Assembly: GCA_040954595.2 (NCBI GenBank)
Contig: CM082580.2
Coordinates: 4,082,783-4,146,782 of the forward strand
Direction: 5' to 3'
DNA from: Balanoglossus misakiensis
Lineage: Eukaryota > Animalia > Hemichordata
DNA length: 64,000 nucleotides
Below the pieces are notes generated by a model that ran no database searches, was not told the DNA's origin, and worked only from the letters and a program-made list of their open reading frames with translations. How positions within the stretch are numbered: the first letter of the stretch is position 1; each line of letters begins with the position of its first letter. Below are positions 17,125 through 49,277 of this stretch, piece by piece. The position numbers and the translations under genes are program-made.

Positions 17125-18603
17125 ATGAAGCTGGATTGTGCGTGGTTGGTCCCACCAAAATCGGTAAAAGTTTTCTTATTCGTATCGGTTTTGATTTTCG
17201 TGTTGTTGTTCTTTAATATTGAATCCATCATTTCTGATCAACTGAAAATTGGGACAGGAATAACCTTTACCCGCCTGCCGGCAAGCGAAGTTCCCATGCG
17301 TTTCAACACCACTGCATCTAACCGAGAACATCAAAGAAACAAGACAGGTAATTAGAATTCATATTTTTATTAAGAAAACACTTCAATCTTTGTCGTTTTC
17401 CAATGTAATACTAGTAGTTCTACTCTTGGAAAACCTACGACCTTCTTAAATTATATCTAGCGTTCTAATGTATAATTCATACAACATAAAACACAAACTT
17501 ACTCTGTGGTAATGTTCCCCATACCATCATTGCATGTAAGAATTCTACGTGTCAAACTCAAATTATTATACTTATGTAAATATGAGGTAAATGAATAGAA
17601 CACAGTCGATGGGTTGGATGAGTCTGTTGTATTAAATTATTTCTGTTCCGGGTTGACAGAAATGGTTACTCGTTTAGTGTCCCGTCCAAGCGCCATTGCC
17701 AAAATACGCCTTTTGTGTGTTGTAACAACATCGCCCAAAACAGCTCGCAGCAGGCTGCAGGCAGTGCAAGATACCTGGGGGAAACGCTGTGATATCACTT
17801 TATACGTCAGCAGTGTGTCAAATCCCAACATGTCAATTGTTGGCCTTAATGTCACCGAAGGTTATGAGGAGCTGTGGGGAAAGTCAAAAGCGGCATTTCA
17901 ACATATTTACAATCACTATTTGGATGACGCTGATTGGTTCCTGAAAGCTGACGACGACACCTATGTTGTAGTGGAGAATTTGAAATATATGTTGTCAGAA
18001 TTCACACCAAAAGAGCCTGTATACTTTGGACATCGATTACATCTGCCTAAGACTAACCAAAGTTACATGAGTGGAGGTGGCGGCTACGTTATGAGCAAAG
18101 CGGGACTATCACGTTTTGTGGAACACGGGCTTCATAAAGAGAAACTTTGTGATGAGGGAGAGAAGGGATTCGAGGATGTGCTGATGGGAGAATGCTTAGA
18201 ATTGGTTGGAGTAACTCACGGAGACTCTAGAGACGAATATGGAAAACAGCGCTTCCTGCCACTCAGTCTGGAGTCTTTTGTGATAGGACCATTACGTGGA
18301 TGGATCGTCAGATACGAATACTATCCAACATCTTCGGTCAGTATTGTACATTGGTTTTTGTATTTTGGTTTCAACATTACGAGCAATATTGTTGCCAGTT
18401 TCATGGGCATAGTGCACAACTATTGCAAACTTTTGATACCGTTCGTGTGTAACACAGTCAATAATGACCGCTAAAGTAGCTTGAATGTTTCTGTTTTTCA
18501 GGGCAAAGAGTGTTGTTCCGACTACCTGGTAAGCGCTCATTACATCAAACCGAATGACATGCACATCCTTGATTATCTCATCTACAATGTGAAAGTAGCA
18601 TGA
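17125..18603 (+). CDS. Core 1 beta-1,3-galactosyltransferase (GT31, C1GALT1-family) paralog, ~333 aa. Exons 17125-17347, 17660-18336, 18502-18603
   Basis: Type II TM anchor; TWGKRC, WFLKADDDTY, YMSGGGGY, EDVLMGECL, GKECCS motifs; exon phases consistent. Confidence 0.9.
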
Positions 18604-21304: not shown

Positions 21305-21973
21305 GTAATATTTCGTAAAATTTATTATCAGGACTCGGCTTGAGCTGCTTCATCTTTCAACTACATACATGTATATGCATATGGAAATCTGTGATTTAGT
21401 GCGAACAGACTGTCTCAAACCCAGCATTGACGCACCATACATTTGGCATTAGGATGACGTCACACAAGCACGTCACCAGATCGCCATTCCTAACGTCACC
21501 GCAACATAGCATGTGTAAAGTTGAGCTCGAGGGGAATTGTCATAATTTCAAGACAAGTTGCCAGGATTCACTTGTTTGGAACAGTCAAACAAAGATGTTT
21601 GACTTCCATCCCACTTGTATGATATGAGAGTAAAAACTCGCCCAAAATGAATAAAAGAACGATTATTCATTTTGGCGAGTTTTTTCACTCTCCTGTCTAT
21701 AAGAGGGATGGAAGTTGTGTGTGGTTGAACGTTGATTCACTATATATCCACATGTAGAATAACAAACGGTGTCTTGTATCAAATATAATTAATGGAAAAA
21801 AGGGCAGCGAGAGAGAGACTTTGTCCCTTTAATACCATTGTTTTTTTTCGGTTGGCGCATGCGTTCATTCTGCAGAGGGTCTGCATAAAAGTCCGGTGTC
21901 TAATACACTGGCTGGGTATCTAGTCTCCTTGGTCCGCGTACATGTTCTGGTGAAAACTTCACGACGGCGAGTC

Positions 21974-24900
21974 ATGAAGTCACCCACTTTGTCCTTTTTG
22001 TTGTTTATGGTCGCTGTGAGCAAAGCGGCTGCTGTTTGCGAGTCACTCGGCGATATTGTCAGTAGTGAGGCCCGTCATTTCGATGCCAGAGACGCAGTCG
22101 CCGGCTCCGGGGCATGTATGTTGACCTCAGATGATATGATGGTGGCTGGTATTGGAACAAGGAGTTTTCAAAGAGCAAAAGTAGGTCTCTTATGGTACTA
22201 TATATATCGCTTAAGATTTATCACATTCCGTTTCTTTGAACTGAGCAATGGAAACAGGTCGTGGAACTGCACACCCAGACTCCTGGAAGTGCCAAACCTA
22301 AGCGACCTCAACCAGGACAGGTCATGATTAGACACACCGTTTACCCTCCCCCCCCTCCTCTTCTTACCCGGGTTCTTCGATCCTTTCATCTCCAGTTTTC
22401 TTTCCGATTTCTATCAATATAACTTATAGCATTGAATCCCCGAAATGAAAAAAAAAATAGCCTGACGCCTTTGGCCCTGAAACGTTTATGTGACAAACAG
22501 TTTGCTCTGGCATTTTGTAACATCTAACACGGCAAGCCCAAGAGAATTCGCGGCAATTCACCATCTCAAGGTGCACAGCCTACGTCAATTCATTCGTGAC
22601 TAATTCGAACCCCAAGGACACTTTCTACCGTTAAGGAATTTCGACTTGTGTACATGAAGCAACTCTGTTCCTCGGGAAAGAATCGCTGAAGTTACGATCA
22701 GATCAAAGTGGTGTCGCTCGCGTTTGCTTCCTTGAGCAAAGGCAATGTAACCAAGTTTCTAAGGCTATTTGATGGAGCTACGACAGCTACTGGTACACCT
22801 TGTGTTTGAGTGTGATTCTCGAAGATAATTAACGAGCGCTATTGCATACGTCATACGTGTGTTGTGTCATGCAAACTATCTCTGCATCGAGACCATGCCT
22901 TTTATGTAAGCGCTGGAGTCTATTTCTATATTCGCTGAAGTATGTCGTGATGCCCTTTATTGGGCTTGCATATCTTGTCGGGGCACAGAAATCTCCCTGG
23001 TATATCCCTTTGACCAACCCTTTATGTACAGAAAGTCGGAGAATGACTGGCTTGCGATTGTGGTGTGCTCAGAAACAGGACAAAAGAATTCCTTTGTGAA
23101 TTACATCAACGTCTCGATGACGTAAACACATGCACTGCTAACATATGCGTTACAAGCCTCACTAATGACAGACGGAACACAGAGTACATACGACTGACGT
23201 AGCCGTAACTTGTAAATTAAGACACGTAAAACCGATGTCAAAAATATGGTATTTCCTATTGGTACAGTATTGAGTAATTCTTCAGTAAAACTATATAACT
23301 GACGCAAATGTGTTTATAGACGTTGTTCAGATTTTGCCTCCTCATTGGTCACATCATTTTTTGTCTTATATAGGCTTGTGGTGAGTGCTTAGAGGTATCG
23401 GGGCCAAATGGACGCTCCATTACCGTGAAGATCATCGACAAGTGTAATGGATGTGACAGAAATGGTCTTAATCTTAGTGAGGAAGCATTTGAACTTCTTG
23501 AAAGCAACTTTGCTGTCGGTATTATTGATGTCACGTGGAAAGTCGTTCCATGTGCTGTTTCCGGCAATATCAACTACAGGGTATTTATTAATTTATTAAT
23601 TTTATAGAAATTACAGACGGCAAAGTAAATTATAAAAAAAATCTATAAACATAAAAGCTATATATACGAAATATATGTCATGTTCCTTTGTCGGTATTGT
23701 TGATGTCACTGGCTCTTCATACTGTAAACACAGCGTCAACGGCGACTTTGTTCCCTCGCATGAGTTCCGACACACTGGCCAGTTGACCGCAAGTGTCGCT
23801 TTGAGAGTTTTTTTTATTTAAAGTAAAAGTATAACTGTAAATGTTGTTATTCCTGTATTAACAATTTAGTTCAAGGAGGGGAGCTCCAAGTGGTGGTTTG
23901 GTATCCAAGCATGGAATTACCGCTACCCAATCAGGCGAATGCAACTCCAAAGACCAGGGCGTAGTGCATGGATCAACCTGAGGCGGACCAACTACAATTA
24001 CTTCCTGAAACCAGAAAATGTAAGCCGTCTGGACGCGCCGTTTAAGCTGAGATTGACCTCGACCAACGGCCGGGTGGCGGAACAAACGGTTGAGGTCATT
24101 TATGCCAGTCACCTGCAGACGTTGGAAGGAACATCGCAGTTTGCATTGTGCGGGGATGAAGTGGGACCTCCTGAAGGCGATGGCGGTGGTGAAGATAGCG
24201 AGGAGCCTGCAGGCGATGATGGAGATAATGAAGGGAATGAAGATGGGCAAGACGAATCAGAAAATGCTTGCATTGTTGATGAACACATGCAAGCTGGTGA
24301 AGGCACTTACTACACTGGAGCGCCACAGGCGGCCGCCGGAAGTGGCAAGTGCAATTTAAACACTGGAGGAGATCTTATGGTGGGAGCCATGGCAGCAGGA
24401 TTGTGGGAAAAGTCGCAGGTACCATCTAGTTGTATTCATTTCCTTTTCATGATGTTCAACTCAGTCATCGCAGAGACAGGTGAAATAACGAGAGGCGAGG
24501 ACAGCTGAGACGTGACCCTCTACTTTTTCTTTATTTCCAGGTATGTGGCGAGTGTGTTGAAGTGACTGGTCCATATGGAGATAGAATCCATATCAAGATC
24601 ATAGACAAGTGTCCGTCTTGCGCTGCCGGCGATATTGATCTGAGCCCAGATGCATTCCAACAGCTAGCCCTTCTTGCAGAGGGAAGGATAGATATCAGCT
24701 GGCGAGTGGTAGAATGTCCGGTCAGAGGCAACTTCAGGTACAAGTTCAAGGACGGCAGTAGTCAGTGGTGGTTTGGAATTCAGGTGAATAATCATCGCTA
24801 CCCAGTCAGCCGAGTGCAAATGAAGAAATCGGGAGAAGACAGATGGATTGAGATGGAACGGACTAATTACAATTTCTTCCTGAAGCCTAACTCGGCGGGT

Positions 24901-26536
24901 GTCGTCGATGCTCCTTTTGAGATCAAAGTCACGTCAACCAATGGGATGGAAGTGCTGGATAGGATCAGTGCAATTCTTGGCAGTGAGTCACAGTTGCAAG
25001 AAGGGGCGGTTCAATTTCCGCACTGCGACGCCATTGATGACGAGGAGGAGGAGGATGAAGGTAAGGCATCTTTAGAAATATAAACAAAGATGGAAATAGC
25101 GGTGTTGCCAGAGTGGTAGTGACGATGAAACAGGAATCTTGGGAAATAGAAATAGCTTTACCGTTTAAAACTTGTCTACACATCTTTCTAGACTCCTCTG
25201 AAACCGACGGAGAGGACGGTGGCGATTCCGACGTTGGTGGCGTGTGCCTTGTTGAACAACGCGTGCACCATGGAGAAGGAACCTTCTACGGCGCCTCTGG
25301 TGCTGCCGCTGGGGGCGGCATGTGTATGATTAACACTGGCGGCGATCTCATGGTTGGAGCAATGGCCAAACCATATTACAACGATGCTCGAGTAAGAACA
25401 TTTGCTTTATGTTCAGCGTCTTGCTTATAGGCCACATTCATAAAAAGGGGGGTTGGAGGAATCGAGAGTTAGCTAAGGGGGCTTGAAATTTTTGTGGTGG
25501 TAGCTGGAGGTAGGGAATTTCGAAAATTGGTAACTACTGCAAGATAGCATTCCATGGCGTTTCCGTAAGAACCACCAGTACGTAAGTGGTGGTTGTCACA
25601 AAACCACTAATCACGAGCTTACTGTGTGGCTGTATGCTAGATATATAACTCTTACAACACCACGTGACCTATATCCTTGCTACAACAATATTTAAGCAAT
25701 TTTATCCTGGAAAGGAAAACATACCACTGAATTTATGATAATACAACAGGCAGCGTACGTACATAAATTGTCCGAGACCATAATGGAGTGATTAAATGGA
25801 TTTTTGACACATTCTCTTTCAAACGAATATTAATCATGCCCTAATAGGTGCACTGCCCTCCAGTACCTAAAACCAGATTATCAACACATTCTTCGTATGC
25901 TTAGGCAGTATTTACAAATGTACATCCTCTTCTCAACAAAAGCAAATGATTCATACAACGCAGGCTATATTGAAATGACACTGGGGTAGTAATACTTAGC
26001 AGATAAAAAATACTGAAAACTTTAGAAGAGTTATTTGATTTCCCCCCTAGGTATGTGGTGAATGTATTGAAGTAACTGGGCCTTATGGTGATGTGATACA
26101 CATTCAGATTGTAGACCAGTGCCCGGAGTGTGCAGCCGGAGATATCGATCTGAGCGAAGAAGCGTTTATAAACCTCGCTGAGCGTCAAGAAGGGAGGATC
26201 GAAATAAGCTGGCGATTGATCGAATGCCCAGTCTCCGGCGCCTTCAAGTACACATTTAAAAGTGGCAGCACAAAATGGTGGTTTGGTATCCAGGTCGTCA
26301 ACCACCGAGTTCCTGTCGCGTCCCTTGCCGTCAAACCTGACAACCACAACTGGTGGATCGCTCTCCCGAGGAAACCGTACAATTTCTTCGTCAACGAACA
26401 GGGGGTGGTCGACGTGCCCTTTTCAGTACGAATTACCTCAACCACGGGAGAGGTGCTTGAAGACAGAATCACGTATTTTCCAGAAAGCCCTTCCGATTTG
26501 CACGATGGTAACGTGCAGTTTTCCTCTGACTGTTAA
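21974..26536 (+). CDS. Secreted protein with three tandem expansin-like (DPBB + CBM63) modules, ~722 aa. Exons 21974-22180, 23374-23580, 23870-24418, 24541-25060, 25192-25391, 26051-26536
   Basis: Signal peptide; three copies of CGECxEVxGP..I(I/V)DxC..(D/N)LS..AF..G.I...W...CxVxG...Y.FKxGSxxWWFGIQ...YNxF...QF, closely resembling Bacillus EXLX1/YoaJ (recalled, not searched). Acidic linkers between modules; all GT-AG introns in phase. Confidence 0.9.
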
Positions 26537-28280: not shown

Positions 28281-31001
28281 ATGGAGTCTCATAACTTCAG
28301 CTTGAATTGTTCGGAATGGCAGAAAGCGGTGAACGGTTGCGAAGACTCTGGTCATCATCATGATGATGATCGCGATGGTCATGATCACAGCATCATTCGT
28401 GAGTTTAGCAATTGGCTAACGGTGTCATGCATGATTGTTTTATTGGCCGTTTTCTCAGTTGGCATTATTGTCAATGTTTTGGTAATAACGTCAGTTAAAT
28501 ACCAACGCAAACAACAGACTGGGTTATATCTAACAGCTATTCTCTCGTTCGCCTACCTTGTAACCTGTACAACGTGTGTACCCATGGCCGTTGCTGGCAT
28601 ATTAAATCCAGACATCGTGGTCTTCGAATTCTGCCTGGTCCATGAAGCATTGTCATTTTCGACTCTACTATTGACAATATTCGTTACAACTATCATTAGC
28701 GTTGATAGACATGATCTCATCAAGAGGTACCCCAAAAGACTGCTGAATACGGAAAGGATCTTTGGGATCACATCAATGTTTGGCGTTGTGTCTGTTGCTC
28801 TGAGCGTAGGGCCAACCCTGGGACACCTGGTGCGCCAAGGAAAGAATAACCATGGGTGTCATCTGTGGACTAGTCGCGTTGATGACTTTGTTTGGTATTT
28901 GGCATATTGTGTTGGGGTTGTCACTCTGATCTCGCTTATTACCATGTGCATCTGCTATTACGACATCGTTCAAAGAACCATCAAGCACGTGGAACAAACC
29001 CGCTTGACCCTGGGCAGAGAAATCCCGGGGAAAGTGGGAAAACTGAAGGCGAAACACAACAAGGTAGTGCCCTCAGCAGATCTCAATCTGCCTTCATCTT
29101 CTAGTGAAGCACACAATACACCAAGTGCGAATATCAAAGATATGTGTGGGGAGTTCACTCAAGGCAACATATCGACCATAGTTACCGACCCGAGGCCAAG
29201 CCTGGCTGTTCAAGGGAGTGGACACTGCGGCGGAAGAGTGGCGGGGAGCACATCAAAAACACAGGACGTTCATCAACCAGAGGGAAAGCAAACAGGAATT
29301 CGTGCGCGCAACCCTGGCAGGTCACTTGCTGCAAAAACGCATCGTGATCGATTGCACAGAAAGGTTATGAAGACATCTTTCATCATTATATGTACCACGT
29401 TTGCTTTTCTTCTGCAGTGGCTGGTTGTCAACGTCCTGGTTGCTCTGGATCTACCCCCAGGTGAGGAATAATAAATAGTTAATCAGACTGAAATGATTAT
29501 TAATGCATCAGTGTCCGAGCACTCTGCTAATTTATTTTCATCATCCACGGTGATATATTTGAAAGAAACGCACCAAACTAAAAAAAAACTATCAATCGCT
29601 GTAAAAATCGTTATCTCAAGGCCATCAATTTTTCACATAATGAATCAAACTGAAAATAATATCCCAAATGCCGATTTTTGATGGTTTTACGCGCCTACGT
29701 AAAATTTACAAACTTTCATTTGTGATTGTGATATTTAATTCTCAACGGATTTGCCATACACTGTCACCGACGTCATAATCATTCCCAGTAGAATAGGCCT
29801 AAGAAGGGATGACAGCATATGTCGCTGATCTGACAGAGCATCATTCTTCAGTTGGCGTAATTATTTCGTCTGCATTGCAAAGACTGCAAATACACATTAA
29901 TTACGGCTATTAGCACAATGTATTTAGATATCATATTACTGATGAAATCTATACACAGCTGGAAACAACGCCTCGAAGGACAGCGTACCTGCAGAACAAT
30001 AATTACATTAGCGTTTAATTACTGTGATGGCTCGTTTTATAAGCTATTAAAAGTTTCCGCTATACAGATTTGTTAAAAAGCTATGTGTAACGATTCAGTT
30101 GACACTTATAATTATGTAATCAATGTAGTGATGCATTAACGATTGATTAATTCAAGTCGCTTAAAACATGCCAATTAACTAAAGCTCATTTAAAATGTCT
30201 TAGCCATTAAACTGCAGTCGAGCTATTAAAGGCACGCGTAAGCTGTAACTTTTGGGATAATTTTCATAATTTTTGTTTCACACTGCACTACCATTAGTCC
30301 ATGCAGATGAAGGCAGTGAACTATACACAAGCATTATAAACCCTAAATATGAGTGCATATGCAAGTTTTAACCAGATAAATAATAAAGCTTTGCCGCAAG
30401 CGATTATGGCCGCCACCGTGGGAAAATGAAAGAAACAATGAAAATGTCGCATTTCCGGTTGTGAAACTTCATAAACAAAACATGATCTCATCCACTTGAG
30501 CTCATGGAAGTAAATGTACACCACTGAGACATCAGATTTTCATTTTTCATTGCAATATTGCACTTTTTTAAAAATGTCAGGAATTTTCGTTTTTCTTTAA
30601 TTTTTGGCCATTTTGTCATCAATAAGTGTTGAGCTTGATATATTATCATGAAATAGCATTTAATAGATATAATTAAAAGCATATATGAGATTATTTAAAA
30701 CATTGATTTTTTATCCAGTTGCAGCTTACGTGCCTTTAACGACCCGTGCGACGACGACGATGACGATGATGGGTATTATTATTACCATTATTATTGTTAT
30801 TTTTTTCTTTCAGGAATACCGCCTGAACTGCGAGTTTTTGCCATGGTACTCTCATACATACCTGCAGCGCTTGATCCAATTATATGCATATCTGCAGTTC
30901 CAGCCATCCAACGGCACACGAAGGATACCCTTTCGAGAGTCTTCGGAGGGAAACTTTGTAAGTGCGTCAGTAAAGTCGACAAGCCTGATGAAGTTACTTG
31001 A
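28281..31001 (+). CDS. Rhodopsin-class orphan GPCR, GPR22-like, ~455 aa. Exons 28281-29460 and 30814-31001
   Basis: Seven hydrophobic segments; CLVHEA..ISVDRHD (cf. GPR22 CCFHEA..LDRYD); long ICL3. Exon 2 supplies TM7 (ALDPIIC) and a helix-8/Cys tail. Confidence 0.8.
30230..30735. mobile_element. Non-autonomous TIR element in the GPCR intron (TTAA TSD, Kolobok-like)
   Basis: TTAA|AGGCACGCGTAAGCTGTAACT ... AGTTGCAGCTTACGTGCCT|TTAA. Confidence 0.7.
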
Positions 31002-31378
31002 AAATCAAATCGACACTTTATTATTGCACTTGCTAGGTGTTTTAACTGTGTGTTTCAATATTTATATCCGATTAAAATATGTGCAGGTAGGAATTACATC
31101 TTCAGGCCCTTGTGTGGGTTATTGCTATCATATTATATCAGCAATTGTTTTTGTGGCATATCAGTGTCATTTTCTTACCGAAACGGCGTCAGAAAGAGAA
31201 ATTACGATCGTGAACCAACATGGCGACGATGAATGTAAACACGAGCAGCCGGGATCCAGCCTGTAAGGTACCTTGGTACTAGTGGTAGAGTCGTGTGCGC
31301 GTGTGTGAAATGACCGTGCATATACACATTAATTGATTCTTGGGTTTTCATCATTTAAAAAACCTTCCCTTCACATGC

Positions 31379-31501
31379 TGACGTCATGCCATGAAACACT
31401 GATTTTAATATCAATAGCACCCATTAACACCTGTGGATTCATTGCCTCCTCGGTCAATACGTTGCTGCAACGTTTTTTCATGCCACCGTTGTTAAAGTGA
31501 G
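31379..31501 (+). promoter_or_regulatory. Putative U1 snRNA promoter: PSE-like element (31483-31501) and upstream CRE (31379-31386)
   Basis: CCACCGTTGTTAAAGTGAG lies at -61 to -43 from U1 +1 and resembles the TCACC....TNAAAG PSE consensus in sequence and position. Perfect TGACGTCA at -165. Confidence 0.6.
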
Positions 31502-31543
31502 TATGCTCGCACTCTATAAGGCCAGGGAAGACTGTCTTCGGGT

Positions 31544-31572
31544 ATACTTACCTGGCACAGGGGTTAACCGTG
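31544..31572 (+). ncRNA. RNU1: U1 snRNA gene, 5' fragment (nt 1-29), interrupted
   Basis: ATACTTACCTGGCACAGGGGTTAACCGTG is the canonical U1 5' end (5'-splice-site recognition sequence) plus the 5' arm of stem-loop I. Confidence 0.92.
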
Positions 31573-31787
31573 TGCTGAGGTGTTCTCATACTCGCTACCT
31601 GTGAAGCGACATCGACATTTAAAGAAGAAAAGTTGGAAGACGTCCGTAGTGCTTTTGTATCTTGGATTGTTCCATTTATAGATCCTTGATTGGGACTTTC
31701 CCACTTGGAACAGGCCGCAGGGCCTGGTGAAGGTAAATCCTTCGTTAGTTTCTTTTTTTCGTTTATTTTTCAGTGGTGGAAGGTGCC

Positions 31788-33248
31788 ATGACCACCCCCC
31801 GACCTTCCCCACGTAAAGTTCGCACGCTTTTACTTTCTTTTGATACCGTTGTTGAGACTAGAGAGGTTTTTAAGGTTCTTCAGGATGCCGGCATTACAGT
31901 CGACAGTCACTTAGAAGCTGTGCAGCGTTTGATAGGAAATAAGTTTGATGTTACCTTTAGACAAGTGGCACAGAAACGCATTTATGAACAGAAATTGCGA
32001 GAAGTTGAGAAATTGTCAGTTCATTCATATGATGACACGGTCATTGTTACGGCGGTCTATGTCGATAATGAATTGGACGACAATTATGTCCAGTACATTT
32101 TGAAACAGTATGGGGAGGTCTTAGCCTCGCGAAAATGTGTCTACCAGGAGCACCCCAGCGTGTATAACGGAATTAGGCAGTACCGTATGAAAATAAAAAG
32201 CAACATCCCCTCTGTTCTACGAATAGCAAATAGAAATGTTAGTATTTATTACTCAGGGCAAACAAGAACTTGCTTCAAATGTGGTAAAAACGGCCACATA
32301 AGTAAAGAATGTAAAGATCTCAGATGCTACAAATGTTTGGAAAACGGGCACACAGCGGACGTGTGTGAAAGTCCAGTTAAGTGCACTATCTGTGGAGAGC
32401 AGGGGCACGTTTTCCGTGCATGTTCACTTTCTTTTGCGAAAAAAGTTTCGCTCACGCATACGTGGCAAGCGGCATCACCTGCTGAGACAGAAATAGACAA
32501 GGCCAGTAGTGAGGTCACCCCGTCTGCCGAGCAACATCATAGCGAACCAATCACCGACACTCTGTCTGACATGGAGATCACACCAGCTCAACGCGAACGT
32601 GAACACTCGGTTGATAGCGACACGTCACCATCTGAAGCGGCAGTGGGCAATGATGACGTGGCACATAAAAAGAAACGCTCCGCGCCATCTTCTATCGATT
32701 CGGAGTTAGATAATAAAGTTTTTAAAGCGCAGGAATCGACGCACAGCGACATGGCTAGTGATAGACTAGTTATTGACGAGGGGGAGGGGACCCTTTCCCC
32801 TGCGTCTGCAAATTCAGATAGGTCAGAGTCCGCTCATGAGTCTAGTTCCCCTGTGGAGGATCCCGTTCCTGATGCTGCGTCTCCGCCAGTATCCACCACT
32901 AAAGAACCTACTACCACCCCTGCATCTAGCGGCAAATCTGACCAGTCAAAGGTTCGCCGCGCTCAGAATTTGATGCGTAATTGTTCACTGCACAATTTAC
33001 AGTCAGTCAACATTCCATGCAGCTCAATGTCCAATCTAAATTGCGATACGCAGCGCGTGGGTTGGCAATCCCTTACAAGTCACTGTAGGGATAAACATAA
33101 GATCAAGGCCATCAAAATCCCTTGCATTGTCAGCCACAAGTGTGGAACTTTGAACAATCCCTCTGTTTGGGTGGACCATCTCTGCAAGATGCATCCCACG
33201 TTTGTTTTGAAGAAGGGGCTTAATTTCTTTGATAGTTATTTCTTGTAA
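31788..33248 (+). CDS. Retrotransposon ORF1 (Tx1/ZCCHC3-like nucleic-acid-binding protein)
   Basis: GCCATGA start at 31788. NGIRQYRM..IPS motif, three CCHC knuckles (CFKCGKNGHISKEC, CYKCLENGHTADVC, CTICGEQGHVFRAC), disordered Ser-rich region, Cys/His-rich C terminus. Confidence 0.9.
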   Translation: MTTPRPSPRKVRTLLLSFDTVVETREVFKVLQDAGITVDSHLEAVQRLIGNKFDVTFRQVAQKRIYEQKLREVEKLSVHSYDDTVIVTAVYVDNELDDNYVQYILKQYGEVLASRKCVYQEHPSVYNGIRQYRMKIKSNIPSVLRIANRNVSIYYSGQTRTCFKCGKNGHISKECKDLRCYKCLENGHTADVCESPVKCTICGEQGHVFRACSLSFAKKVSLTHTWQAASPAETEIDKASSEVTPSAEQHHSEPITDTLSDMEITPAQREREHSVDSDTSPSEAAVGNDDVAHKKKRSAPSSIDSELDNKVFKAQESTHSDMASDRLVIDEGEGTLSPASANSDRSESAHESSSPVEDPVPDAASPPVSTTKEPTTTPASSGKSDQSKVRRAQNLMRNCSLHNLQSVNIPCSSMSNLNCDTQRVGWQSLTSHCRDKHKIKAIKIPCIVSHKCGTLNNPSVWVDHLCKMHPTFVLKKGLNFFDSYFL

Positions 33249-33251
33249 TTT

Positions 33252-36200
33252 ATGGTCACTTCTAGATCTTTATTTCTCATTATGTTTCTGTCTTTTTGTT
33301 CATTAAATGTTAACGGTTTACAAGATGGGAGAAAACGTAACACACTTTTTCAGTATTTGAGGGATTCGGGGCACGATATTATTTTTTTGCAGGAGACTCA
33401 TGTCTCATCGAATAAAGATATTGATTTATGGAATAGAGAGTGGGGAGGTTCGGGTTATTGGGGGCTTGGCACAAGTGTTAGTTGTGGGGTGGGAATCCTT
33501 TTCAAGAAAGGGGTTGATTTTCATTTTCAAAATATCAGGACAGAGGAAAATGGACGTGTCATTGCTGGTACCATAGAAAAAGAGGGCAAACGTTTTCATT
33601 TATGCAATGTGTATGCCCCCAATGTTAGCAGTTTGAGACGCCAGTTCTTTAATAATTTGCCTAATTATCTTTCGAGTTCTCTGCCTATTATTTTGGGAGG
33701 GGATTTCAACTGTGTTGAAAATCCGTCGGACGTGTTTGGTGGTTCAATTCCGAATACTTCCCGTTTTATTGGGGGAAAAGAGTTGCTTTCTATTTGCAAA
33801 GATTTTGATATTCATGATTGTTGGAGAGCATCCAACCCAACTGAACAGTCTTTTACGTGGCGAGATCGAAGTAATAGTGTTGGTAGTAGAATTGATAGAT
33901 TTTATACTCCTACTTCTTTGAAATGTATTTCTAGTATTTCCTCATGTGCTCTTTCTGACCATGACGCCGTTTCTATTTCTATTCAAATGTCGAATTCCAG
34001 GGTAAAGGGTCCTGGCTATTGGAAATGTAACGTGAGTCTTCTAGATGACGACTTGGTCTCTTGTATTGAGCATCACTTCAAAAATTGGCTTACTTTGCAG
34101 CCTGGCTTTTCGTCGAAGAGCGCATGGTGGGACATGGTAAAATCTCGGGTAAAGTCCATCATTAAGAATAGAGCAAGAGCAACAGCGCTCAAGCGTAAAC
34201 AGAAAATTGAAAATTTACAGGCCGAATTATCCCGTCTCACTTCTCTTTTGAATGAGGGCGACAAGTCCAAACAAGTGCTAGTTGAGTACCATGCAACCAG
34301 GGATAAATTGAGGGATTGCATTACTCAAAAGACCCTTGGTACCAAAATTCGCTCTAGGGCTAAACTCTTGGACGAGGATGAAAAATGTTCGCACTACTTC
34401 TTTCAAAAGGAGAAACAGCGTGGTAAGCGCAAATTAATTTCAAAAGTCATCGACAGCAGTGGTAATGAGCATACTGACCAGCGTGATATGTCACATTGCC
34501 TACGTGACTTTTTCGGCAAGCTATACAGTAGTGAAGGTCACCTTGATACAGAGGAGCAAACGTTCTTCCTTTCCCAGGTGAAGTCTAAACTGTCTTCAGA
34601 TTCCAGGCAGAGTTTAGAAGCCCCTCTGACTTTGGATGAGCTTACAATGGCTCTTAAAAATATGCCCAATAACAAAACACCGGGTAGCGATGGGTTACAG
34701 AAAGAGTTTTATATTGCTTGCTGGCATTTTATTGGTCCGTCTTTTCTTGATGTGTGCAATGAAATTCTTGATCAGGGTTATCTTAGTGACACTCAACGTC
34801 ACGGAGTCATCACCTTATTGAGCAAGTCTGTTAACTCTACGGACGACCGCGCCCAATATTTTCCAGAAAACAAACGGCCGATTTCCCTACTCAATGTCGA
34901 CTATAAGATCATAGCAAAAGTCCTCAGTCACAGGTTAGGTTCTGTCATGCCTGGTATTGTCAATACTTTTCAAACATGTGGGGTGAAAAACCGGTCAATT
35001 CATGACAATCTTACAACTTTGCGAGACATCTGCCATTTTGTTAACCAAAGGAATTTACCTTGTGCATTTGTGTCTTTAGATCAAAGCAAAGCTTTTGACA
35101 GAGTCGAATGGGATTTTCTTTTCAAAACTTTAGAAAGAATGGATTTTGGGCCAATTTTTACAAAGTGGTTACGCATTTTGTACACTGATATATCTAGCTC
35201 TCTGCTTGTTAATGGTTTTCTTTCTGATAAATTTACTTTATCCAGAGGAGTAAGACAAGGTTGTCCTTTGTCCCCGTTGTTGTTTGTTTTATTTATGGAG
35301 CCTTTCGCTGCAGCTGTCCAGAATGATAATTTAATTAAGGGTTTTTCTATTCCAGGGAGAGGCTCTAATGAGTGTAAGCTTTTTCAGTATGCTGATGACA
35401 CAACTGCAGTTATTACTAATGACAAGTCATTCAACCGGTTAACTACTTTGTGCCAAAGATTTGGGTTGGCTTCTGGAGCAAGGTTGAATTTATCGAAGTG
35501 TAAAGGGCTCTGGCTAGGGAAATGGAAGGGTCGCCAGGACACCCCTATGGATATAAAGTGGTCTTCCGAAAAACTGAAAATCAACGGGATTTGGTTTGGA
35601 AATATCAATATGGGAGTGGTGAACTGGAAAGAACGTATTTCTAAATTTTGTGATCTTGTTACTAAATGGCATTCCAGGCGTTTGTCTATAATTGGCCGGG
35701 TGTTATTAATTAATACGGTGGCTGCCCCGATTTTGTATTATGTAGCTTCATTATTCCCTTTGCCTCTCTGTCTTCTGAAAAAAATCAATCTGTCCCTTTT
35801 TGGGTTTCTTTGGGGTCCCGGAAAGTGGCAGTGTGTCGCCAGGAAAACTATGTACCTTCCGACTGAAAAGGGTGGGTTGGGTCTCGTTAACATTGCTAAC
35901 AAAGTTAAGTCTTTACTGTTGCATAATATTCTGCGTAATTCTGTAGAGATGGCCAAGCCGTGTGGGTCTCTATTAAGAGCGTATCTTTCCACCAGTCTAC
36001 GTTCGTTCATCCCAGAAGTTTATGATAATTTTACCCCCCATTTTCAATCTGCTCCTAAATGGTATACTAGCTTTTTGTTTGACCTTCGTCGTCTTCAAAA
36101 GATTGCTACCCCTGGAACAATATGGCAGATTCTCACGTCCGCTCAAATCTATGATTTATTGCAATCAGTGGAAGTAATCCTCCCCAGGGTGGTTCATCTT

Positions 36201-36761
36201 GACCCCCAAAGAAATTGGATTTCAGTTTGGTATAATGTCCACTTGGACTGTCTTGATAACAAATTGAAAGAACTGTCATGGAAGTGTGCTCATGACGTCA
36301 TCAAGACAAATTCTAAATTAAGCGGGTGGGCCTTTATGAATATTTCGGCTAAGTGTCCTAGGAAAAATTGTAGTGGGAGAGAGACCCCCCGACATTTGTT
36401 TTTGGACTGTCCCCTTGCACGTTTTTTGTGGGCCTGGGTAGATTCCCAATTGTTCAGGTTGTTTGGCCCGTTGGTACAGTCTACTTGGGATTTAATTTAT
36501 TACAGTCTGCTACCAATAGTCACAGACACCCAGAAAAAGAAACTGGCTCTGCTGCTTGTTAATCTAACGAAGCACTTCATTTGGTATACTAGGTGTATGG
36601 CTGCATATGAGTCCGTTAATTATACGCCAGACTCGGCTCTCTTGCAGCTAAAAAATATTATTACATACAGAATTCAGACAGACCTGCAAAGAAAAGATTC
36701 AGAGACCTTGAAAAATGTTTGGGCCCTTCTGTTCGTGAAGAATGACAAGATCCGGCTGTAA
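33252..36761 (+). CDS. Retrotransposon ORF2: APE endonuclease + reverse transcriptase + C-terminal Zn motif
   Basis: SLNVNGL, LQETH, NVYAP, GGDFN, SDH (APE); KTPGSDG, RPISLLNVDYKI, KAFDRV, GVRQGCPLSP, YADD (RT); CPRKNC..ETPRHLFLDC. Confidence 0.96.
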   Translation: MVTSRSLFLIMFLSFCSLNVNGLQDGRKRNTLFQYLRDSGHDIIFLQETHVSSNKDIDLWNREWGGSGYWGLGTSVSCGVGILFKKGVDFHFQNIRTEENGRVIAGTIEKEGKRFHLCNVYAPNVSSLRRQFFNNLPNYLSSSLPIILGGDFNCVENPSDVFGGSIPNTSRFIGGKELLSICKDFDIHDCWRASNPTEQSFTWRDRSNSVGSRIDRFYTPTSLKCISSISSCALSDHDAVSISIQMSNSRVKGPGYWKCNVSLLDDDLVSCIEHHFKNWLTLQPGFSSKSAWWDMVKSRVKSIIKNRARATALKRKQKIENLQAELSRLTSLLNEGDKSKQVLVEYHATRDKLRDCITQKTLGTKIRSRAKLLDEDEKCSHYFFQKEKQRGKRKLISKVIDSSGNEHTDQRDMSHCLRDFFGKLYSSEGHLDTEEQTFFLSQVKSKLSSDSRQSLEAPLTLDELTMALKNMPNNKTPGSDGLQKEFYIACWHFIGPSFLDVCNEILDQGYLSDTQRHGVITLLSKSVNSTDDRAQYFPENKRPISLLNVDYKIIAKVLSHRLGSVMPGIVNTFQTCGVKNRSIHDNLTTLRDICHFVNQRNLPCAFVSLDQSKAFDRVEWDFLFKTLERMDFGPIFTKWLRILYTDISSSLLVNGFLSDKFTLSRGVRQGCPLSPLLFVLFMEPFAAAVQNDNLIKGFSIPGRGSNECKLFQYADDTTAVITNDKSFNRLTTLCQRFGLASGARLNLSKCKGLWLGKWKGRQDTPMDIKWSSEKLKINGIWFGNINMGVVNWKERISKFCDLVTKWHSRRLSIIGRVLLINTVAAPILYYVASLFPLPLCLLKKINLSLFGFLWGPGKWQCVARKTMYLPTEKGGLGLVNIANKVKSLLLHNILRNSVEMAKPCGSLLRAYLSTSLRSFIPEVYDNFTPHFQSAPKWYTSFLFDLRRLQKIATPGTIWQILTSAQIYDLLQSVEVILPRVVHLDPQRNWISVWYNVHLDCLDNKLKELSWKCAHDVIKTNSKLSGWAFMNISAKCPRKNCSGRETPRHLFLDCPLARFLWAWVDSQLFRLFGPLVQSTWDLIYYSLLPIVTDTQKKKLALLLVNLTKHFIWYTRCMAAYESVNYTPDSALLQLKNIITYRIQTDLQRKDSETLKNVWALLFVKNDKIRL

Positions 36762-36886
36762 CGTATGCTCTGGGCACCATACTCCTTGGGGCTGTAATGG
36801 CCAGCAGCGTCACAATAAAGTTTTTGTTGTCCTTCATGACAGAAGTGTTCCCACACCACCGCAATATTCATCATTATGCCAGTTTC

Positions 36887-37000
36887 AAAAAAAAAAAAGG
36901 CGGGAAAAAAAGGAAAAAAAAGAATGGAAAAAGAGGGGAAAAAAAGGAAAAAAAAAAAAAGGAAAAAAAAAAAAGGGAAAAAAGAAAAGAAAAAAGAAAA
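36887..37000 (+). repeat. A/G-rich purine tract in the retrotransposon 3' region
   Basis: About 114 nt of An runs punctuated by G, followed by a T-rich stretch. Confidence 0.85.
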
Positions 37001-37335
37001 CAGTCTTTGCTCTAATAATTTGTTGTACGCAAATCAGTTGTAGTTCTGTTTTTATGTTTCCTACGTTGATATTTGTATTATTTAGTTATCTTTCCTTAAC
37101 GTTTTATTTACTTTTCGCATTAAACTTTTATTTGGAGATGGCAGGGGGAATCGTACTCCCTTGAGCCTCGAACCAGCGTGGTCTGGCCTGCCTGAGGACT
37201 CCAGTTGAATAATTTTAGTTCCTTTATTTTTTAGATTAGAATTTTCATGTTTCCAAAATGAAAAGAGCATGAAATGTTGAAAATGTAATTAGGGTTTTTG
37301 ATTTGATTTAGTTTTTATTTCCTCAAACCAAAAAG

Positions 37336-37463
37336 AGGCGGTTCTTCCAAGGCGAGGCCCGCGCATTGCACTCCGCGCGGGTTGACCTTTGCGATCACCC
37401 CAAATGTGGGTGACTCGGGTGCAGAATTTATGGTAGTGGGGGACTGCGTTCGCGCTATCCCCT
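37336..37463 (+). ncRNA. RNU1: U1 snRNA gene, 3' fragment
   Basis: AGGCGGTTCTTCC (SL-I 3' arm), CATTGCACTCC (U1A loop), CCCCAAATGTGGG (SL-III), Sm site AATTTATGG, terminal stem GGGGGACTGCGTTCGCGCTATCCCCT. An A-rich 3'-box-like AAAGAACAGA follows. Confidence 0.95.
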
Positions 37464-37846
37464 TTACATCGAAACAAAGAACAGAACAACTATTTCAATT
37501 CTTCATTGGGAATCTAAATTACTTTGTGCTCATTTAATTAATAAAAGTTGGTTGTGAACAGTATATATACTGTAAATGTCTACCTATTAGGAGAATTTAT
37601 CAAATTTAGGCCTACGCGACATTTTAATCAGAAGTCATGTTTTCATTTCTACTCAATCATTTTTAGATCAACCATAAAATGCAGTCTGAACACTCTGGAA
37701 TTCGCAATAACAATTTTTTATTAACAAAAAAAAATCAAAGTAACACAGACAATTGATGACAATTGTCGTATTGTTGTACTTGTACATAGGATCATTTTCA
37801 CAGAGTTTATGTTCACAGAACAGTTTACTCCAATGCAGCTCAGAGA

Positions 37847-41469: not shown

Positions 41470-41675
41470 TACATAGTGAATGTAACACTAATGTACCTCA
41501 GTGAACACTGGATAATTTACAGGTGTTGGGTTACATGTTTTAAAGCTCACTGACATGCTTCATCCCACAGTCTGTGATGTCTCTCTTCGTGCTTGACAAT
41601 ATTGAAATAATTTTATTGTGTTTTGTTATCCACAGAAATTATACATGGAAGAGGTTTGATTGACGTGAAAGGATC

Positions 41676-43060
41676 ATGGACAAATTTGGATACTTCACGT
41701 TTGTCTTGGGCCTGGCAGCTGGCGTCTTATTCACTCTTCTTGTCAATCAGAGTGAACATGTCATCTCGTACAGGAAAACCTTTCTATCCGGAATGATACC
41801 GGTGTTGTGGAACCCCCCGGAACAGACCCAACCCGGCAAATACGAACACAGTTACTTCTACAGACTGAACGGAACACAGTTCGAACTTGTGGAAACGGAA
41901 CTGTCCAAGAGGCTGGAGAGGGAAAATTTCGACCCCAGGAGTCAGGCGGATCTTCTGTACGACGAAGTGAAAGTGTTGTGCCAAGTCTACGTGGACAAGG
42001 GCCAGCTGGCGAAACTGGGCAAGGCAATACAGGAGACGTGGGGGTCGCATTGCAACAAAGTTGTTATAGTCAGCGGTGGGGTCGATCGCAGTCTGAAAGA
42101 TTCCTACCACATAGACATTGCGGACAAGCCCGATCGGGTGTGGGAGAAAAGTAAGCAAGGCTTCCGGCAGGCGTACGAGCGATATCGAAACGACTATCAT
42201 TACTTTCTGAAAGCTGACGCGAGTATGGTCGTCGTGGTGGAAAATCTACGATATCTTTTGTTTGTCCACAACACCAGCGTTCCGGGCTACATTGGCCACG
42301 TTTTCCTGGGAAAGAAGGATGCATCCAGCATAGTGATCAGCCGGAAGGGACTGGAGAAGCTTCATCCCAAACTGGACGAGTGTCCGAATGAAGTTGGGGG
42401 CAACGATGATGCCTCTGAACTGACGAGGTGCATGGAGAAAGTTGGGATCGTATCAAGCGTGGATGGACGGGACTACAGAGGTCACCTGAGATTTGTCATG
42501 AAACAGCCGGATCATAAACTCCCATTCAATACAGCAACTGCCTTATCATTCACCAGTTTGTATTGGAGGTTCATCAAGTACCCAGAACAAAAGGTAAGTT
42601 TCACCCATAAAGTTGTTTCTTTTTTATCATAAATAAAATTCAGAATTATGTATTATAAGATATTATTTAAAAAATCACTGTTTTAAATGGCTTGCTGAAC
42701 TCCTCAAAAACTTTGATATTTATTTCATGTACATTTTTCAAATACCAAATTATGTTATGTATATCACAGCATAACTCTATCGACTGCTGGGTCGCTTGTC
42801 GGATCTCTCAGATAGGGTGTGCCCTGGGACAGAGACCTGTAGGAATTCGTTCTTTACATGAATCAGTGTATCAAGCACATCGTAATTGTAGACTTTTCTG
42901 TATTTTTATTTTACAGGATCCTGAATGCTGCTATGAGTATGCAATTTTGTTCAGCAACGTCAATCATCACACGTTGTACACACTGGAACATATGGTGTAT
43001 CACTTGAGACCGTACGGGGTTGGTGAATTCAAATGTTCGAGCGAGATCGGCCAGAAGTAG
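41676..43060 (+). CDS. C1GALT1-family paralog lacking the DDD/DxD motif (Cosmc/C1GALT1C1-like), ~353 aa. Exons 41676-42593, 42917-43060
   Basis: Type II TM; ETWGSHCNK; YFLKADASMVVVVENLRYLL in place of KADDDTY; no YMSGG motif; ECC and YHLRPYG tail. An acceptor at 41635 implies an upstream non-coding exon. Confidence 0.8.
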
Positions 43061-45135: not shown

Positions 45136-45544
45136 TTAACTGGAAATGGGCCCATATGTCACCAGATTCACTTCATTAAATCAATATTGCTCATCAAAGA
45201 CAATATGGAACTCCTACATTCTCACACTGGGCGGGAATTTTTTGTCCTCCACTAGACTGTGGCTCGTGTGGGACAAATATGATCCCAGGTCCTCGGGAGT
45301 GTGAGATTCTATAAAAGCATATATTTCCCCAAAAGTCAAATATCCGAACTTTACTTTGATGTGTTTCATTTACTTGTAACAAAATTATTTTTTGAATGAT
45401 ATACTTTAACCAGATATGGGCTGAATATACTTGAAGATGTGCGAATTTCCAATAAAATCGTCATGAAACTCGTCACTGTCTATTAGTGAATCTAAATCTG
45501 GTACACTATCCTCATACTGATGCTAGAGTGATATAATTCATTAA

Positions 45545-45898
45545 AGGGACAAAGTCTCTCTCTCGCTGCCCCTTTTCCATTAATTATATTTGATAAAAGA
45601 CACTGTTTATGTTATTCTTCATGTGGATATACAGTGAATCAACGTTCAACCACACACACCTTGCACCCCGCTTGTAGACACGAGAGTGAAAAAACTCGCC
45701 AAAATGAATAATTGGTCTTTACCATTTATTCATTTTGGAGAGATTTTTTCTCTCATATCCTACAAACGGTATGGACGTTGTGTGAGGTCGAACGTTGATT
45801 CACTATATATTCACATGTAGAATAACATAAACAGTGTCTTGTATCAAACTTAATTAATGGAAAAAGGGCAGAGAGAGAGAGAGAGAGACTTTGTCCCT
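45545..45898. mobile_element. Complete family A element with internal direct duplication
   Basis: TTAA|AGGGACAAAGTCTCTCTCTC ... GAGAGAGAGACTTTGTCCCT|TTAA with long inverted arms. Confidence 0.8.
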
Positions 45899-46552
45899 TT
45901 AATGTAGGCAAACAAGCTGTTTATTAACATGCTATAAATAAAATGTCTCACCTATTCAGGTGATTCTGTGAAATCTATAACATCTTTTCATCATTATAAA
46001 GTTCATTAAATGTGCAAATTTTCAGTTTATTGATTCTTAGTAATTAATATCTCAAGCAAGTTCATCAAATCCGGTGCAGGAACTCTGGAGTTAGTGCTAA
46101 TTGCATAAGTTTATGAGGTATACATTATAGCCATTATATCCACCAAAATGCAACCAGTTCTTGCCATATTAGAAGCCAATTGCAATCCAAATTTGACACG
46201 AATTTGTCCAGAGGGACCGACTCAGATTGTCGTATAAAGTCAAATAAATTTTGAAACTAGAAAAGTCACGTGCAGAGTGTTGGTAAAATATTTCCAAGAA
46301 AAAAAAAATAGTAAATTTCATCAAGAGTTAAACTACTGTAGGTTGCTTTAAAATAATATCATGGAGAGAACACATGATCACCAGATCATACACCTTATTG
46401 GAATGCAAAATTATTCGTGCAGGGGAGGGTTTCTTGATTTGATCAGGGGGGAGGTCAATATTTATTTGCAACCAATCAGGGAGGGGGGGGGGGTCATTGT
46501 TTTTCATCCAGTTTTTTAAATAGCTCCCCCCCCCCCCACGTCCGGACCCTTA

Positions 46553-47092: not shown

Positions 47093-49277
47093 ATGGCTGT
47101 GAAAGCCACAGTTGTTGCGACTACATTTGTCGTTGGGCTCGCGTTTGGTGCGACATTCGCGACTCTCTTTTTCAGATTCACTTATGACACGCCGGGTGCG
47201 AGATCGAAAGGTCCTACGCGGAAGTTTGCGGTATCAAAAATTCTGGACGACGATCCATATGGACATGTTTTGGTCGACGAAACAAACGAGGTGTCTACTC
47301 AAGAATCGGACCGCTTTCAAGAACACACAGATGATGGAGTGTCTTACAGAGGTAAATACCATGATTTGACGGCATGTCAGCGCTCTGTTCGAATGCACAT
47401 TGCGTATGAGCCCGGGTGTACGGTAGGGGTTAAATGTATACGGTCACCTCCAATTTATACGCCCGTATATGTCAGAAATAGCGTTTGAGTGTTCTAAAGA
47501 ATTTTTGGTGGCGCTCTTTTTGTCGCGTGTGCCACCCATTGAAAATCTGTGATTGGCTAGATCTAAATTTACCATGGTTATGCTGTAGCTATATTTGCAT
47601 AGGTGACCATGTACCTTTAATGGTTGGGGTCGGCTTGACCCTGGGGCATTTCAAGTCGATTCCTAACCCTACCCCACGGCCCTGGGCTACAACTATTGCA
47701 GTTAGGGTGTATGGCAATCTGGGCTGACGATTTAGTGAAAAATGCGGGTACTACAGTCTGCACTGTAATTCACAAAATCAGGCATGTTGACCATAACATG
47801 TGTAGACTCTCTCAGAGCTCCTCTCGCTGCCTATGCCAGCGAGAGGTGCTTCTCTGAACGGTTGAGGGCACGTCAGTGTGCAGCATGTAAAGAGCCCTGT
47901 AGCGAACCGTGGGCTGTGAGAGAGTCTAGTTGACCATGCAACCTCGAGCAACCAGTTCATATACATACTTTGATCACTTCAAGCTGATTCAATGTAACTT
48001 TTCTTCTTCCCATCTTTGCACAGGAGAAAATGCGGTTGCAGCAGAATTAAAAAGTAAGGTCAGAATTCTGATCTGGGTCGCGACGCATCCCACAAACAAA
48101 GACACTAAGTTGAAGCACGTGAAAGCCACGTGGGCCAAACACTTCGACCCAGACCAGGTCATTTACATCAGCTCCCAAGAGGACAAAACCTTCCCCATCG
48201 TCGGAGTGAAGTTGGGAGTCCCCGAGGGGAGAAACGCGCTGTGGGCCAAAACTCGGGCGGCGTTCACGTACCTGTACGACAATCACTTGGAGGATGCCGA
48301 CTGGTTCATGAAGGCGGACGACGACACCTACGTCGTCGCGGAAAACCTCCTGTATTTCCTGTCGGACAAGGACCCCAGTGAACCCCACTATTACGGACGG
48401 AGGTTCAAACCGTACGTCAAGCAAGGCTACATGAGCGGCGGCTCGGGCTACGTCATCAGCAAAGAGGCGCTGAAACGAGTCGTGACGCAGGCCTTCCCGG
48501 AAAAGACCCAGTGTAGGGAGGCAACTTATGCCGGGGCCGAGGACGTCGAAATGGGCAGATGTTTGGACAGCGTCGGCGTCTATGCCGGCGACAGCAGAGA
48601 CTCTTTGGGACGGGAAAGATTCCATCCGTTTGTACCGGACCAACTTCTGGTGCCGAACACTTTACCAACGAATTTCTGGTACTGGCAATACATCTATTAC
48701 AAGACTCCACAGGTAAGTTGCAACTCGCTCAAGATCTACATTTCAAGTAATTCTAATATACTTACACAGTGGGGGGGGGGGGGATTCACCCCCTGTTGAC
48801 AAGTTGGCACCCCCTAGCAATTTGTCAAGGGGGGAAAAACCCAGACCTTCTGTACCAATGCCTGTAGCAGGCAAGTTCATGCAACCAAACACTCATAACC
48901 ACATTCTGCAATTTGAAGAAAATAGTAAATTTTGTATAAATGTGTAAATTTTGGACACAAGCAGTTTTTTTCAGTAAGAAATTTACTAGGTACATTATAG
49001 TCAGTGCAACAACATAAAAACAAAAAATACTTGTTCAGAAGAAAACTCTGTTGAGTATGGATATCTGGGCGTTTGCCTTACGCCAACTTACAATCAAAAT
49101 GATATTTTCCTTTTTTTGTTGTTTCAGGGGATAGAATGCTGCTCTGACCATACAATCACATATCACTATGTTGGACCGAATTTGATGTATTCATTAGAGT
49201 ACATGATATACCACATGCGACCATTTAGTGTCGAGATAGGAGATACTTGCCCTGCAGTGCAACAAGCAAAGTCATAA
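47093..49277 (+). CDS. C1GALT1: Core 1 beta-1,3-galactosyltransferase (T-synthase), ~365 aa. Exons 47093-47351, 48024-48712, 49128-49277
   Basis: KVRILIWV, HVKATWAK, LWAKTRAAF, DADWFMKADDDTYV, GRRFKPYVKQGYMSGGSGY, AEDVEMGRCL, GDSRD..RFHPF, ECCSD, YHMRP. Confidence 0.92.

Follow-up and report, generated by a model that had tools for sequence, protein, structure and literature searches.

A 64,000-nt stretch of the genome of the hemichordate Balanoglossus misakiensis (assembly GCA_040954595.2, contig CM082580.2, positions 4,082,783–4,146,782; hereafter the window) contains a U1 small nuclear RNA (snRNA) gene split by an intact retrotransposon of the L1/Tx1 group, which lacks long terminal repeats (non-LTR). 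The element is likely part of a radiation related to Keno, an element of U2 snRNA genes, that probably chooses its insertion site by position and not by a sequence peculiar to U1. On balance, Keno-like elements probably target sites ~35–41 nt behind snRNA and histone transcription starts and are likely to borrow the promoter found there. The evidence comprises the structure of the split gene and of the element, the insertion sites of relatives retrieved independently of U1, and the intermixing of elements inserted in different snRNA genes on phylogenetic trees.

A U1 gene split by an intact element

The insert is 5,763 bp long and lies in the same orientation as the gene. Its 5′ flank consists of U1 nt 1–29 (31544–31572, + strand), identified from the sequence, and the rest of U1, from nt 37 (nt 36 in the 164-nt numbering of other loci) to its end, follows on the same strand at 37336–37463 (Rfam U1, 89.2 bits, E 7.9e-21). 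This arrangement had been described in an earlier note made from the sequence alone, and both halves of the gene were confirmed. The region directly upstream (31464–31543, + strand), likely the U1 promoter, recurs at other U1 loci of this organism; in each run it is covered to at least 88% by two or more additional contigs, which show fixed differences at 31494–31520, and contigs also run from it straight into the 3′ part of U1 without the element. Behind U1, an A-rich sequence (37464–37485, + strand), which we take to be of the “3′ box” type, resembles the sequence behind an intact U1 gene of a related locus (L013). Since the upstream region is shared with other U1 loci and the downstream sequence is like that of another intact U1 gene, the split copy was a real gene. 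It appears to be solitary here, because the U1 5′ motif occurs once in the window and the neighbouring sequences are protein-coding exons (ARM-repeat, galactosyltransferase, expansin-like, G protein-coupled receptor and sulfotransferase).

The junctions were compared with contigs from two runs (X1 and X2) over positions 30800–37420, so that the final 43 nt of U1 lay outside the comparison; inspection covered 17 of the 89 loose ends and 24 of the 502 aligned pieces. The three listed runs, two of which contain this stretch, come from a single sample that may also have been used for the assembly. The 5′ junction is bridged by an X1 contig (31464–32130, depth 28.1) and the 3′ junction by a 4,606-nt X1 contig (32778–37383, depth 27.8), both with no differences, while an X2 contig (37006–37383) also bridges the 3′ junction. 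These contigs speak against a join error; coming from a single sample, they do not amount to independent biological support.

Three joints cross the insertion site without the element (X2, depth 140; X1, depths 48.8 and 38). An uninterrupted U1 paralogue from X2 reads GTG-ATCATGA-CGGCGG across the site. The presence of ATCATGA in this paralogue indicates that ~7 nt (U1 nt 30–36; range 6–8) were lost and that no target-site duplication was formed; none was present among the 20 largest direct-repeat families listed or seen by eye at the junctions. The lost nucleotides belong to loop I, where the break had been placed from the sequence alone. Loop I of U1 binds U1-70K. The split copy, without this loop, is likely dead, and its loss would probably be buffered by the paralogues.

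Contigs linked to the flanks and those internal to the element have equal depth, which suggests one full copy in the sample, contig depth being a rough guide to copy number. A second, related sequence (~89–99% alike) occurs in the same sample and covers only 31681–32791, i.e. the 5′ half of the first open reading frame (ORF). This sister sequence shares 31681–32319 and is flanked by 554 different letters on one side, which was interpreted as the upstream side.

The element, encoded on the + strand, begins with a 215-nt 5′ untranslated region (UTR; 31573–31787), the first 11 nt of which are predicted to pair with U1 nt 6–16. ORF1 (31788–33248) encodes 486 amino acids (aa) with three CCHC zinc knuckles (at 32271, 32325 and 32382) and a C-terminal half of low complexity; no match to an RRM family was obtained for it with Pfam at E 10. 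ORF2 (33252–36761) begins 3 nt past the ORF1 stop in the same frame and encodes 1169 aa, or 1159 aa from the likely start at 33282. It contains an apurinic/apyrimidinic (AP)-type endonuclease (33297–33962; Exo_endo_phos, E 9e-19), a reverse transcriptase (RT; 34866–35513; RVT_1, E 1e-37) and a C-terminal CCHC motif (36354–36410), with a further Pfam match to zf-RVT (E 3e-6). The motifs NVNG, QET, YAP, GDFN, RID, SDH, QG..LSP and YADD are all present, and neither ORF has an internal stop; the two uninterrupted ORFs with endonuclease and RT motifs reported previously, from which the earlier note took it that the element may be active, were thus verified. The top PDB match of ORF2 was human L1 ORF2p (E 2e-77, residues 4–869), followed at a distance by R2 (E 4e-20). 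With this ORF2 and a separate nucleic-acid-binding ORF1, the element is an L1-group non-LTR retrotransposon. The 3′ UTR spans 574 nt (36762–37335). No ribozyme or other family was detected at E 5 in an Rfam scan of 31400–37340.

Insertion sites and phylogeny of related elements

A protein search yielded 233 matches among 7,989 candidates. Among the 120 listed, which come without DNA, the closest were P0001 (44% identity), P0002 (39%) and a third protein (38%). An alignment of the window ORF2 with 24 relatives served as search pattern, and loci were selected through RT peptide patterns, with no use of U1. The best 80 of 111 confirmed stretches in genome_contigs gave 60 loci (animal contigs inside metagenome-assembled genome (MAG) records, judged by content), and the best 80 of 544 in metagenome_contigs gave 80 more, 140 in total; none of 158 pattern matches in viral_contigs was confirmed. 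Targets were labelled by Rfam (34 of the first 60 loci) and by BLAST of all 140 loci against fetched U1, U2 and 5S genes (output inspected for 28 of the first 60), and junctions were read by eye and by script. The U2 junction of L008, which belongs to another element, was left out of the counts.

This analysis revealed 3′ junctions in U1 at nt 36–37 (L002), nt 35–37 (L013) and nt 41 (L016). Others lie in U2, either at nt 35–36 (L006, L073 and L094) or at nt 38–39 (L003, L014, L072, L080 and L081), the site given for Keno and Utopia in an excerpt of PMC4640811. At a further locus, L097, the sequence that comes after the element can be aligned with the 3′ two thirds of the U5 model. The window element and L002 resume at the same A in U1, and L111 has a U1 head nearly equal to that of the window, with its 5′ break at U1 nt 29–30 as in the window. 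Since independent loci fetched by RT alone use the same U1 base, the U1 site cannot be put down to chance.

Two trees were built: a FastTree phylogeny of 202 RT rows and an IQ-TREE (LG+G4) phylogeny of 43 endonuclease plus RT rows, chosen for labels and closeness, which is unrooted and uses no mixture model. The window element falls into a six-row clade with P0001, P0002, P0042, P0030 and L083 (support 99/97), sister (94/95) to a 19-row clade (100/99) of mixed targets. There, L013 (U1) pairs with L073 (U2) at 100/100 and 68% RT identity, and L002 and L016 (U1) group with L006 (U2) and L097 (U5-like) at 100/99 and 55–68% RT identity. The nearest kin of U1-inserted elements are found in U2 (nt 35–36 or 38–39), in a U5-like gene or with 5′ heads from histone genes. 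A single clade of elements inserted at U1 nt 29–41 was rejected (p-AU 3.7e-49, 782 log units, 5 rows versus 38).

The earlier assignment to the Tx1 type stands as far as membership of the L1/Tx1 group and kinship with elements at the Keno site in U2 are concerned; the named elements Tx1, Keno, Mutsu and Dewa were compared through site proxies only. By these proxies, on a tree without outgroup, the window element falls among elements with U2 (Keno site), 5S and tRNA flanks. Keno-site proxies form two groups, to one of which the window clade is sister in this tree (94/95; placement beside the other was not rejected, see below); the adjoining elements share 41–44% RT identity with the window element.

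Sequence heads derived from histone genes were found at the 5′ ends of some relatives, by means of histone-start motifs that we assume to be characteristic. In L013 (L013:3199–3365), an H4-type start comes first and an H3 start second, L082 lies 34 nt behind an H4/H2A-type TATA box/initiator and carries a second, 47-nt head (L082:1–135), and L139 sits behind an H2B-type start. Real histone genes, which were found in one of the five MAG records searched (not that of L013), show the same starts and promoter layout as the heads of these three loci. Heads stacked in this way point to former residence in other genes, with read-through starting at the promoters of those genes. On its 5′ side, L013 is preceded by a complete U1 gene together with ~75 nt of the spacer downstream of that gene.

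Other insertion habits were observed among the relatives. A separate clade (L001, L004, L005, L009, L010, L015, L067, L069, L091, L130 and L132) is inserted at U1 nt 2/3 within a 5S-U2-U1 tandem array, where about the first 11–17 nt are duplicated and nearly the whole of U1 is left behind. The 3′ UTRs seen in this clade contain one or two CATTGCAC boxes like the loop of U1 stem-loop II, which is presumably the U1A-binding site. A third U1 site is represented by L098 (23–6204) and L104, with a 3′ junction at nt 19–22, a 12–15 bp duplication and a tree position not close to that of the window element. One MAG record (L024, L029–L060) holds ~30 near-identical copies of a distant relative arranged head-to-tail with a period near 6.5–6.8 kb; the copies checked gave no U1, U2, 5S or Rfam match. 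L027 (4448–4530) adjoins 5S rRNA at about nt 33 and is Mutsu-like, and L019 and L021 are Dewa-like relatives in tRNA clusters. ARAGORN, applied to 60 of the 80 metagenome loci, found no tRNA gene.

Position or sequence as the target cue

When 20-nt windows around the U1 (nt 35–41) and U2 sites were compared in register, only 3–5 of 20 letters were shared, which is the level expected by chance. The first letter at most junctions is A, which priming from the A-rich tail would favour. The endonuclease hairpin loop, a specificity element, is not common to U1-inserted elements.

A fuller form of the positional reading is put forward tentatively, with a little less than even confidence: Keno-like elements, long regarded as specific for U2 sequence, may be promoter-guided, inserting ~36 nt within short polymerase II genes present in many copies (U1, U2, U5 and histones), riding on their promoters and switching gene class at a constant distance, with a leader folded over the captured snRNA head. 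Under the main positional reading, ORF2p would be brought to snRNA-type and histone promoters via the promoter complex or a paused polymerase, and its AP endonuclease would nick near +36, asking little of the sequence other than an A to prime the A-rich tail. This would be followed by target-primed reverse transcription, which is established for the group, and the second-strand step would remove U1 nt 30–36. Transcription of the new copy from the U1 promoter would then yield an RNA with a U1 head.

If position sets the site, the usual view, by which the target is picked through the sequence preference of the endonuclease, would fail for this branch. The reading would, if true, also point to a host factor common to snRNA and histone promoters. 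With its two intact ORFs, this copy allows sequence to be tested against position by promoter/target swap and is a candidate reagent for finding the tether; elements that aim at multicopy genes are wanted as gene-insertion tools.

Several observations weigh against a choice by position. Related groups use U1 nt 3–4 (9 junctions) and nt 19–22 (L098), so the +35–41 distance is not group-wide, and the pentamer GTTCT, present at nt 41–43 in both U1 and U2 and 0–7 nt past the junctions, is a short shared motif that could explain the sharing of U1 and U2. The U5 match of L097 is weak (19.9 bits, E 0.97, under the cut-off of 40). Among the loci read, no element was seen to have its 3′ junction within a histone gene. 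L075 and L139 have apparent 3′ ends without a recognised target; apart from chance matches, an Rfam search at E 0.5 of 12 unlabelled or partly labelled relatives recovered nothing but the U2 head of L075. In the related FastTree clade, 8 of 19 loci have an snRNA 3′ junction (3 U1, 4 U2 and 1 U5-like), 6 have only a 5′ head and 5 have neither, mostly because the contig appears to end before a target could be recognised. L083, the sole other locus with DNA in the clade of the window element, has no recognised target beside it. Finally, placement of this clade beside the second U2 nt 38–39 group was not rejected (p-AU 0.066).

The strongest competitor, which we nevertheless consider rather unlikely, is the proposal of the earlier note that the element belongs to a U1-specific family. 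Its endonuclease would read the U1 sequence near loop I, and separate lineages would have arrived at one and the same base on their own, like Keno and Utopia in U2. For U2, such convergence on a single site is documented (PMC4640811, in excerpt). The single full copy seen sits in U1, and the ends of the window element, L002 and L013 lie within ~1 nt of each other. The GTTCT motif 0–7 nt past the U1 and U2 junctions is compatible with sequence recognition, and the U1 copy that was hit reads GGTTCTT where an unhit paralogue has GGTTCCC. The predicted pairing of the leader with the U1 head (ddG p 0.015) would fit long residence in U1, and the window's own clade contains no second labelled locus that could contradict it. 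Against this, the trees contain no U1 clade, and switches between U1, U2 and U5-like targets occur at 55–68% RT identity with the distance from the start preserved. A U1-inserted element (L013) carries nested histone heads, and only one of the three 3′ ends of its family in its record adjoins U1. The hairpin loop differs among U1-inserted elements, and, as a weak point, the sister sequence in the sample has no joint to a U1 head among the ends listed. What holds of the earlier proposal is that landing in U1 is non-random; a lineage confined to U1, with an endonuclease that reads the U1 sequence, is not supported in the form proposed, given the rejected U1 clade and the sisters in U2, U5-like and histone contexts.

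An improbable alternative is that the insert is composite. The coding element would end at an A/G tract (36887–37000) in the 3′ UTR, the following 335 nt (37001–37335) being carried-over flank or an older insertion; in the latter case the older insertion would have made the U1 3′ junction and the coding element would have landed in or beside it. The only AATAAA of the 3′ UTR, at 36814, does precede the tract, and the final 335 nt end in a short A-rich tail (5 A) with no such signal ahead of it, whereas most relatives at these sites carry AATAAA just ahead of the tail. However, this AATAAA is 67 nt from the tract, the segment 36988–37208 has single-copy contig depth and is therefore not a common repeat, and both junctions look like those of relatives of simple structure (the 5′ one as in L111, the 3′ one as in L002).

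A random insertion that happened to hit U1 and was picked out for its oddness is very improbable. Only one copy is known, the nearest relatives have no known target, and the first stage of the analysis selects oddities; yet, if 339 Mb of contigs stand in for the genome size and 20 U1 genes are assumed, a 7-nt target would be hit in ~4 of 10 million cases, and other, independent loci recovered through RT alone share this base. Acquisition of the U1 head by template switching onto U1 RNA, for which U1-headed Tx1-Mar elements of crocodilians and the origin proposed for the U1/U2 heads of SINEU offer a precedent (PMC4494074, in excerpt), or an assembly error is hardly credible, as shared U1-locus DNA precedes the head, the element is followed by the rest of U1 and the 3′-box-like sequence, and both junctions are spanned by contigs free of differences.

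The region 31544–31620 has a predicted fold with z −2.25, and a second one, at 31690–31790, has z −3.96, not equalled by any of 200 shuffles. Pairing of the leader with the U1 head in the window gave p 0.015 by energy, 0.14 by expected pairs and 0.32 in a duplex test, with 20-mers of the same element as controls and head ends set by eye. By expected pairs, p < 0.1 was obtained for 5 of 8 deletion-type loci versus 1 of 11 others, a division of the loci made after the results had been seen. With such mixed tests, the predicted folding of the leader back on the U1 head is a post hoc lead. Just ahead of ORF1, the 31690–31790 fold contains GTAAAT, which resembles a splice donor, as well as a pyrimidine tract whose CAG lies 14 nt upstream of the ATG.

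Known systems and the surrounding DNA

No non-LTR element that targets U1 was reported in the literature searched, which did not extend to Repbase, Dfam or Fell et al. 2025; U1 is accordingly not among the reported targets of non-LTR retrotransposons there. Fell et al. are said to have screened 4,464 animal genomes, and Kojima and Fujiwara reportedly described Keno in 2004 as an AP-endonuclease element of the Tx1 clade in U2 snRNA genes. Like Keno, the window element is an AP-endonuclease non-LTR element in a spliceosomal snRNA gene, with a precise 3′ junction within the first 40 nt. It differs in its target (U1, junction at nt 36/37, compared through Keno-site proxies and not the named Keno) and in having relatives with mixed U1, U2, U5-like and histone sites. 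The Keno site is described as a U2 3′ flank without the first 38 nt (PMC4640811, in excerpt). An intact, non-random insertion that works like Keno therefore lies in U1 and not in U2, the target by which Keno is recognised.

According to the same excerpt, Utopia resembles the window element in having an snRNA target, few copies, a 3′ junction that is fixed and a 5′ junction that varies and, in some families, no target duplication; unlike it, Utopia has a restriction-like endonuclease, generally a single protein and U2 as its only target (PMC4640811). Dada-U1 also inserts in U1 snRNA genes (excerpts of PMC3706591 and PMC8869645), but it is a DDE DNA transposon that generates a 6–7 bp duplication at another U1 site, whereas the window harbours an RT element with a target deletion. 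It was the only U1-targeting element reported by 2015, as far as the excerpt of PMC4640811 goes. In a Tx1 tree legend, U2, U5 and 5S are named as RNA-gene targets (PMC4494074, in excerpt).

The crocodilian Tx1-Mar elements (Tx1-2_Crp, Tx1-2B_Crp, Tx1-4_AMi and Tx1-11_Crp) and SINEU are related to Keno and begin with U1 or U2 sequence. In contrast to the window element, the Tx1-Mar elements lie mostly in Mariner-N4_AMi or LTR elements; template switching was proposed as the source of such heads, and read-through from a flanking promoter was discussed (all from an excerpt of PMC4494074). Residence in a U1 gene, as in the window, would directly yield U1 heads like those of Tx1-Mar, and the positional reading would, if true, offer a simple origin for the U1/U2 heads of crocodilian Tx1 and SINEU elements. 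TRE5-A and Tf1 are known examples of retrotransposons that host proteins direct to a position (PMC3706591, in excerpt). The principle proposed here is the same, a host-protein tether that sets the distance from the promoter; however, these elements insert near, not inside, tRNA genes or general polymerase II promoters, and the tether of the window element is only proposed.

Several further features were noted in the window. A very high-copy short repeat (31116–31260; summed contig depth in the tens of thousands) lies ~280 nt upstream of U1, and a 193-aa ORF across it (30685–31266) has no Pfam match and is probably spurious. Two expansin-like genes (23870–26533; DPBB_1 and a weak Expansin_C) are present in this animal genome, as are three C1GALT1/Fringe-like galactosyltransferase open frames (17599–18471, 41664–42629 and 47930–48796). 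Repeats include a 241-bp tandem array of 4.8 copies (6338–7493) and a palindromic repeat (45539–45904) resembling a miniature inverted-repeat transposable element, with partial copies at 546–759, 2967–3206 and 21602–21833.

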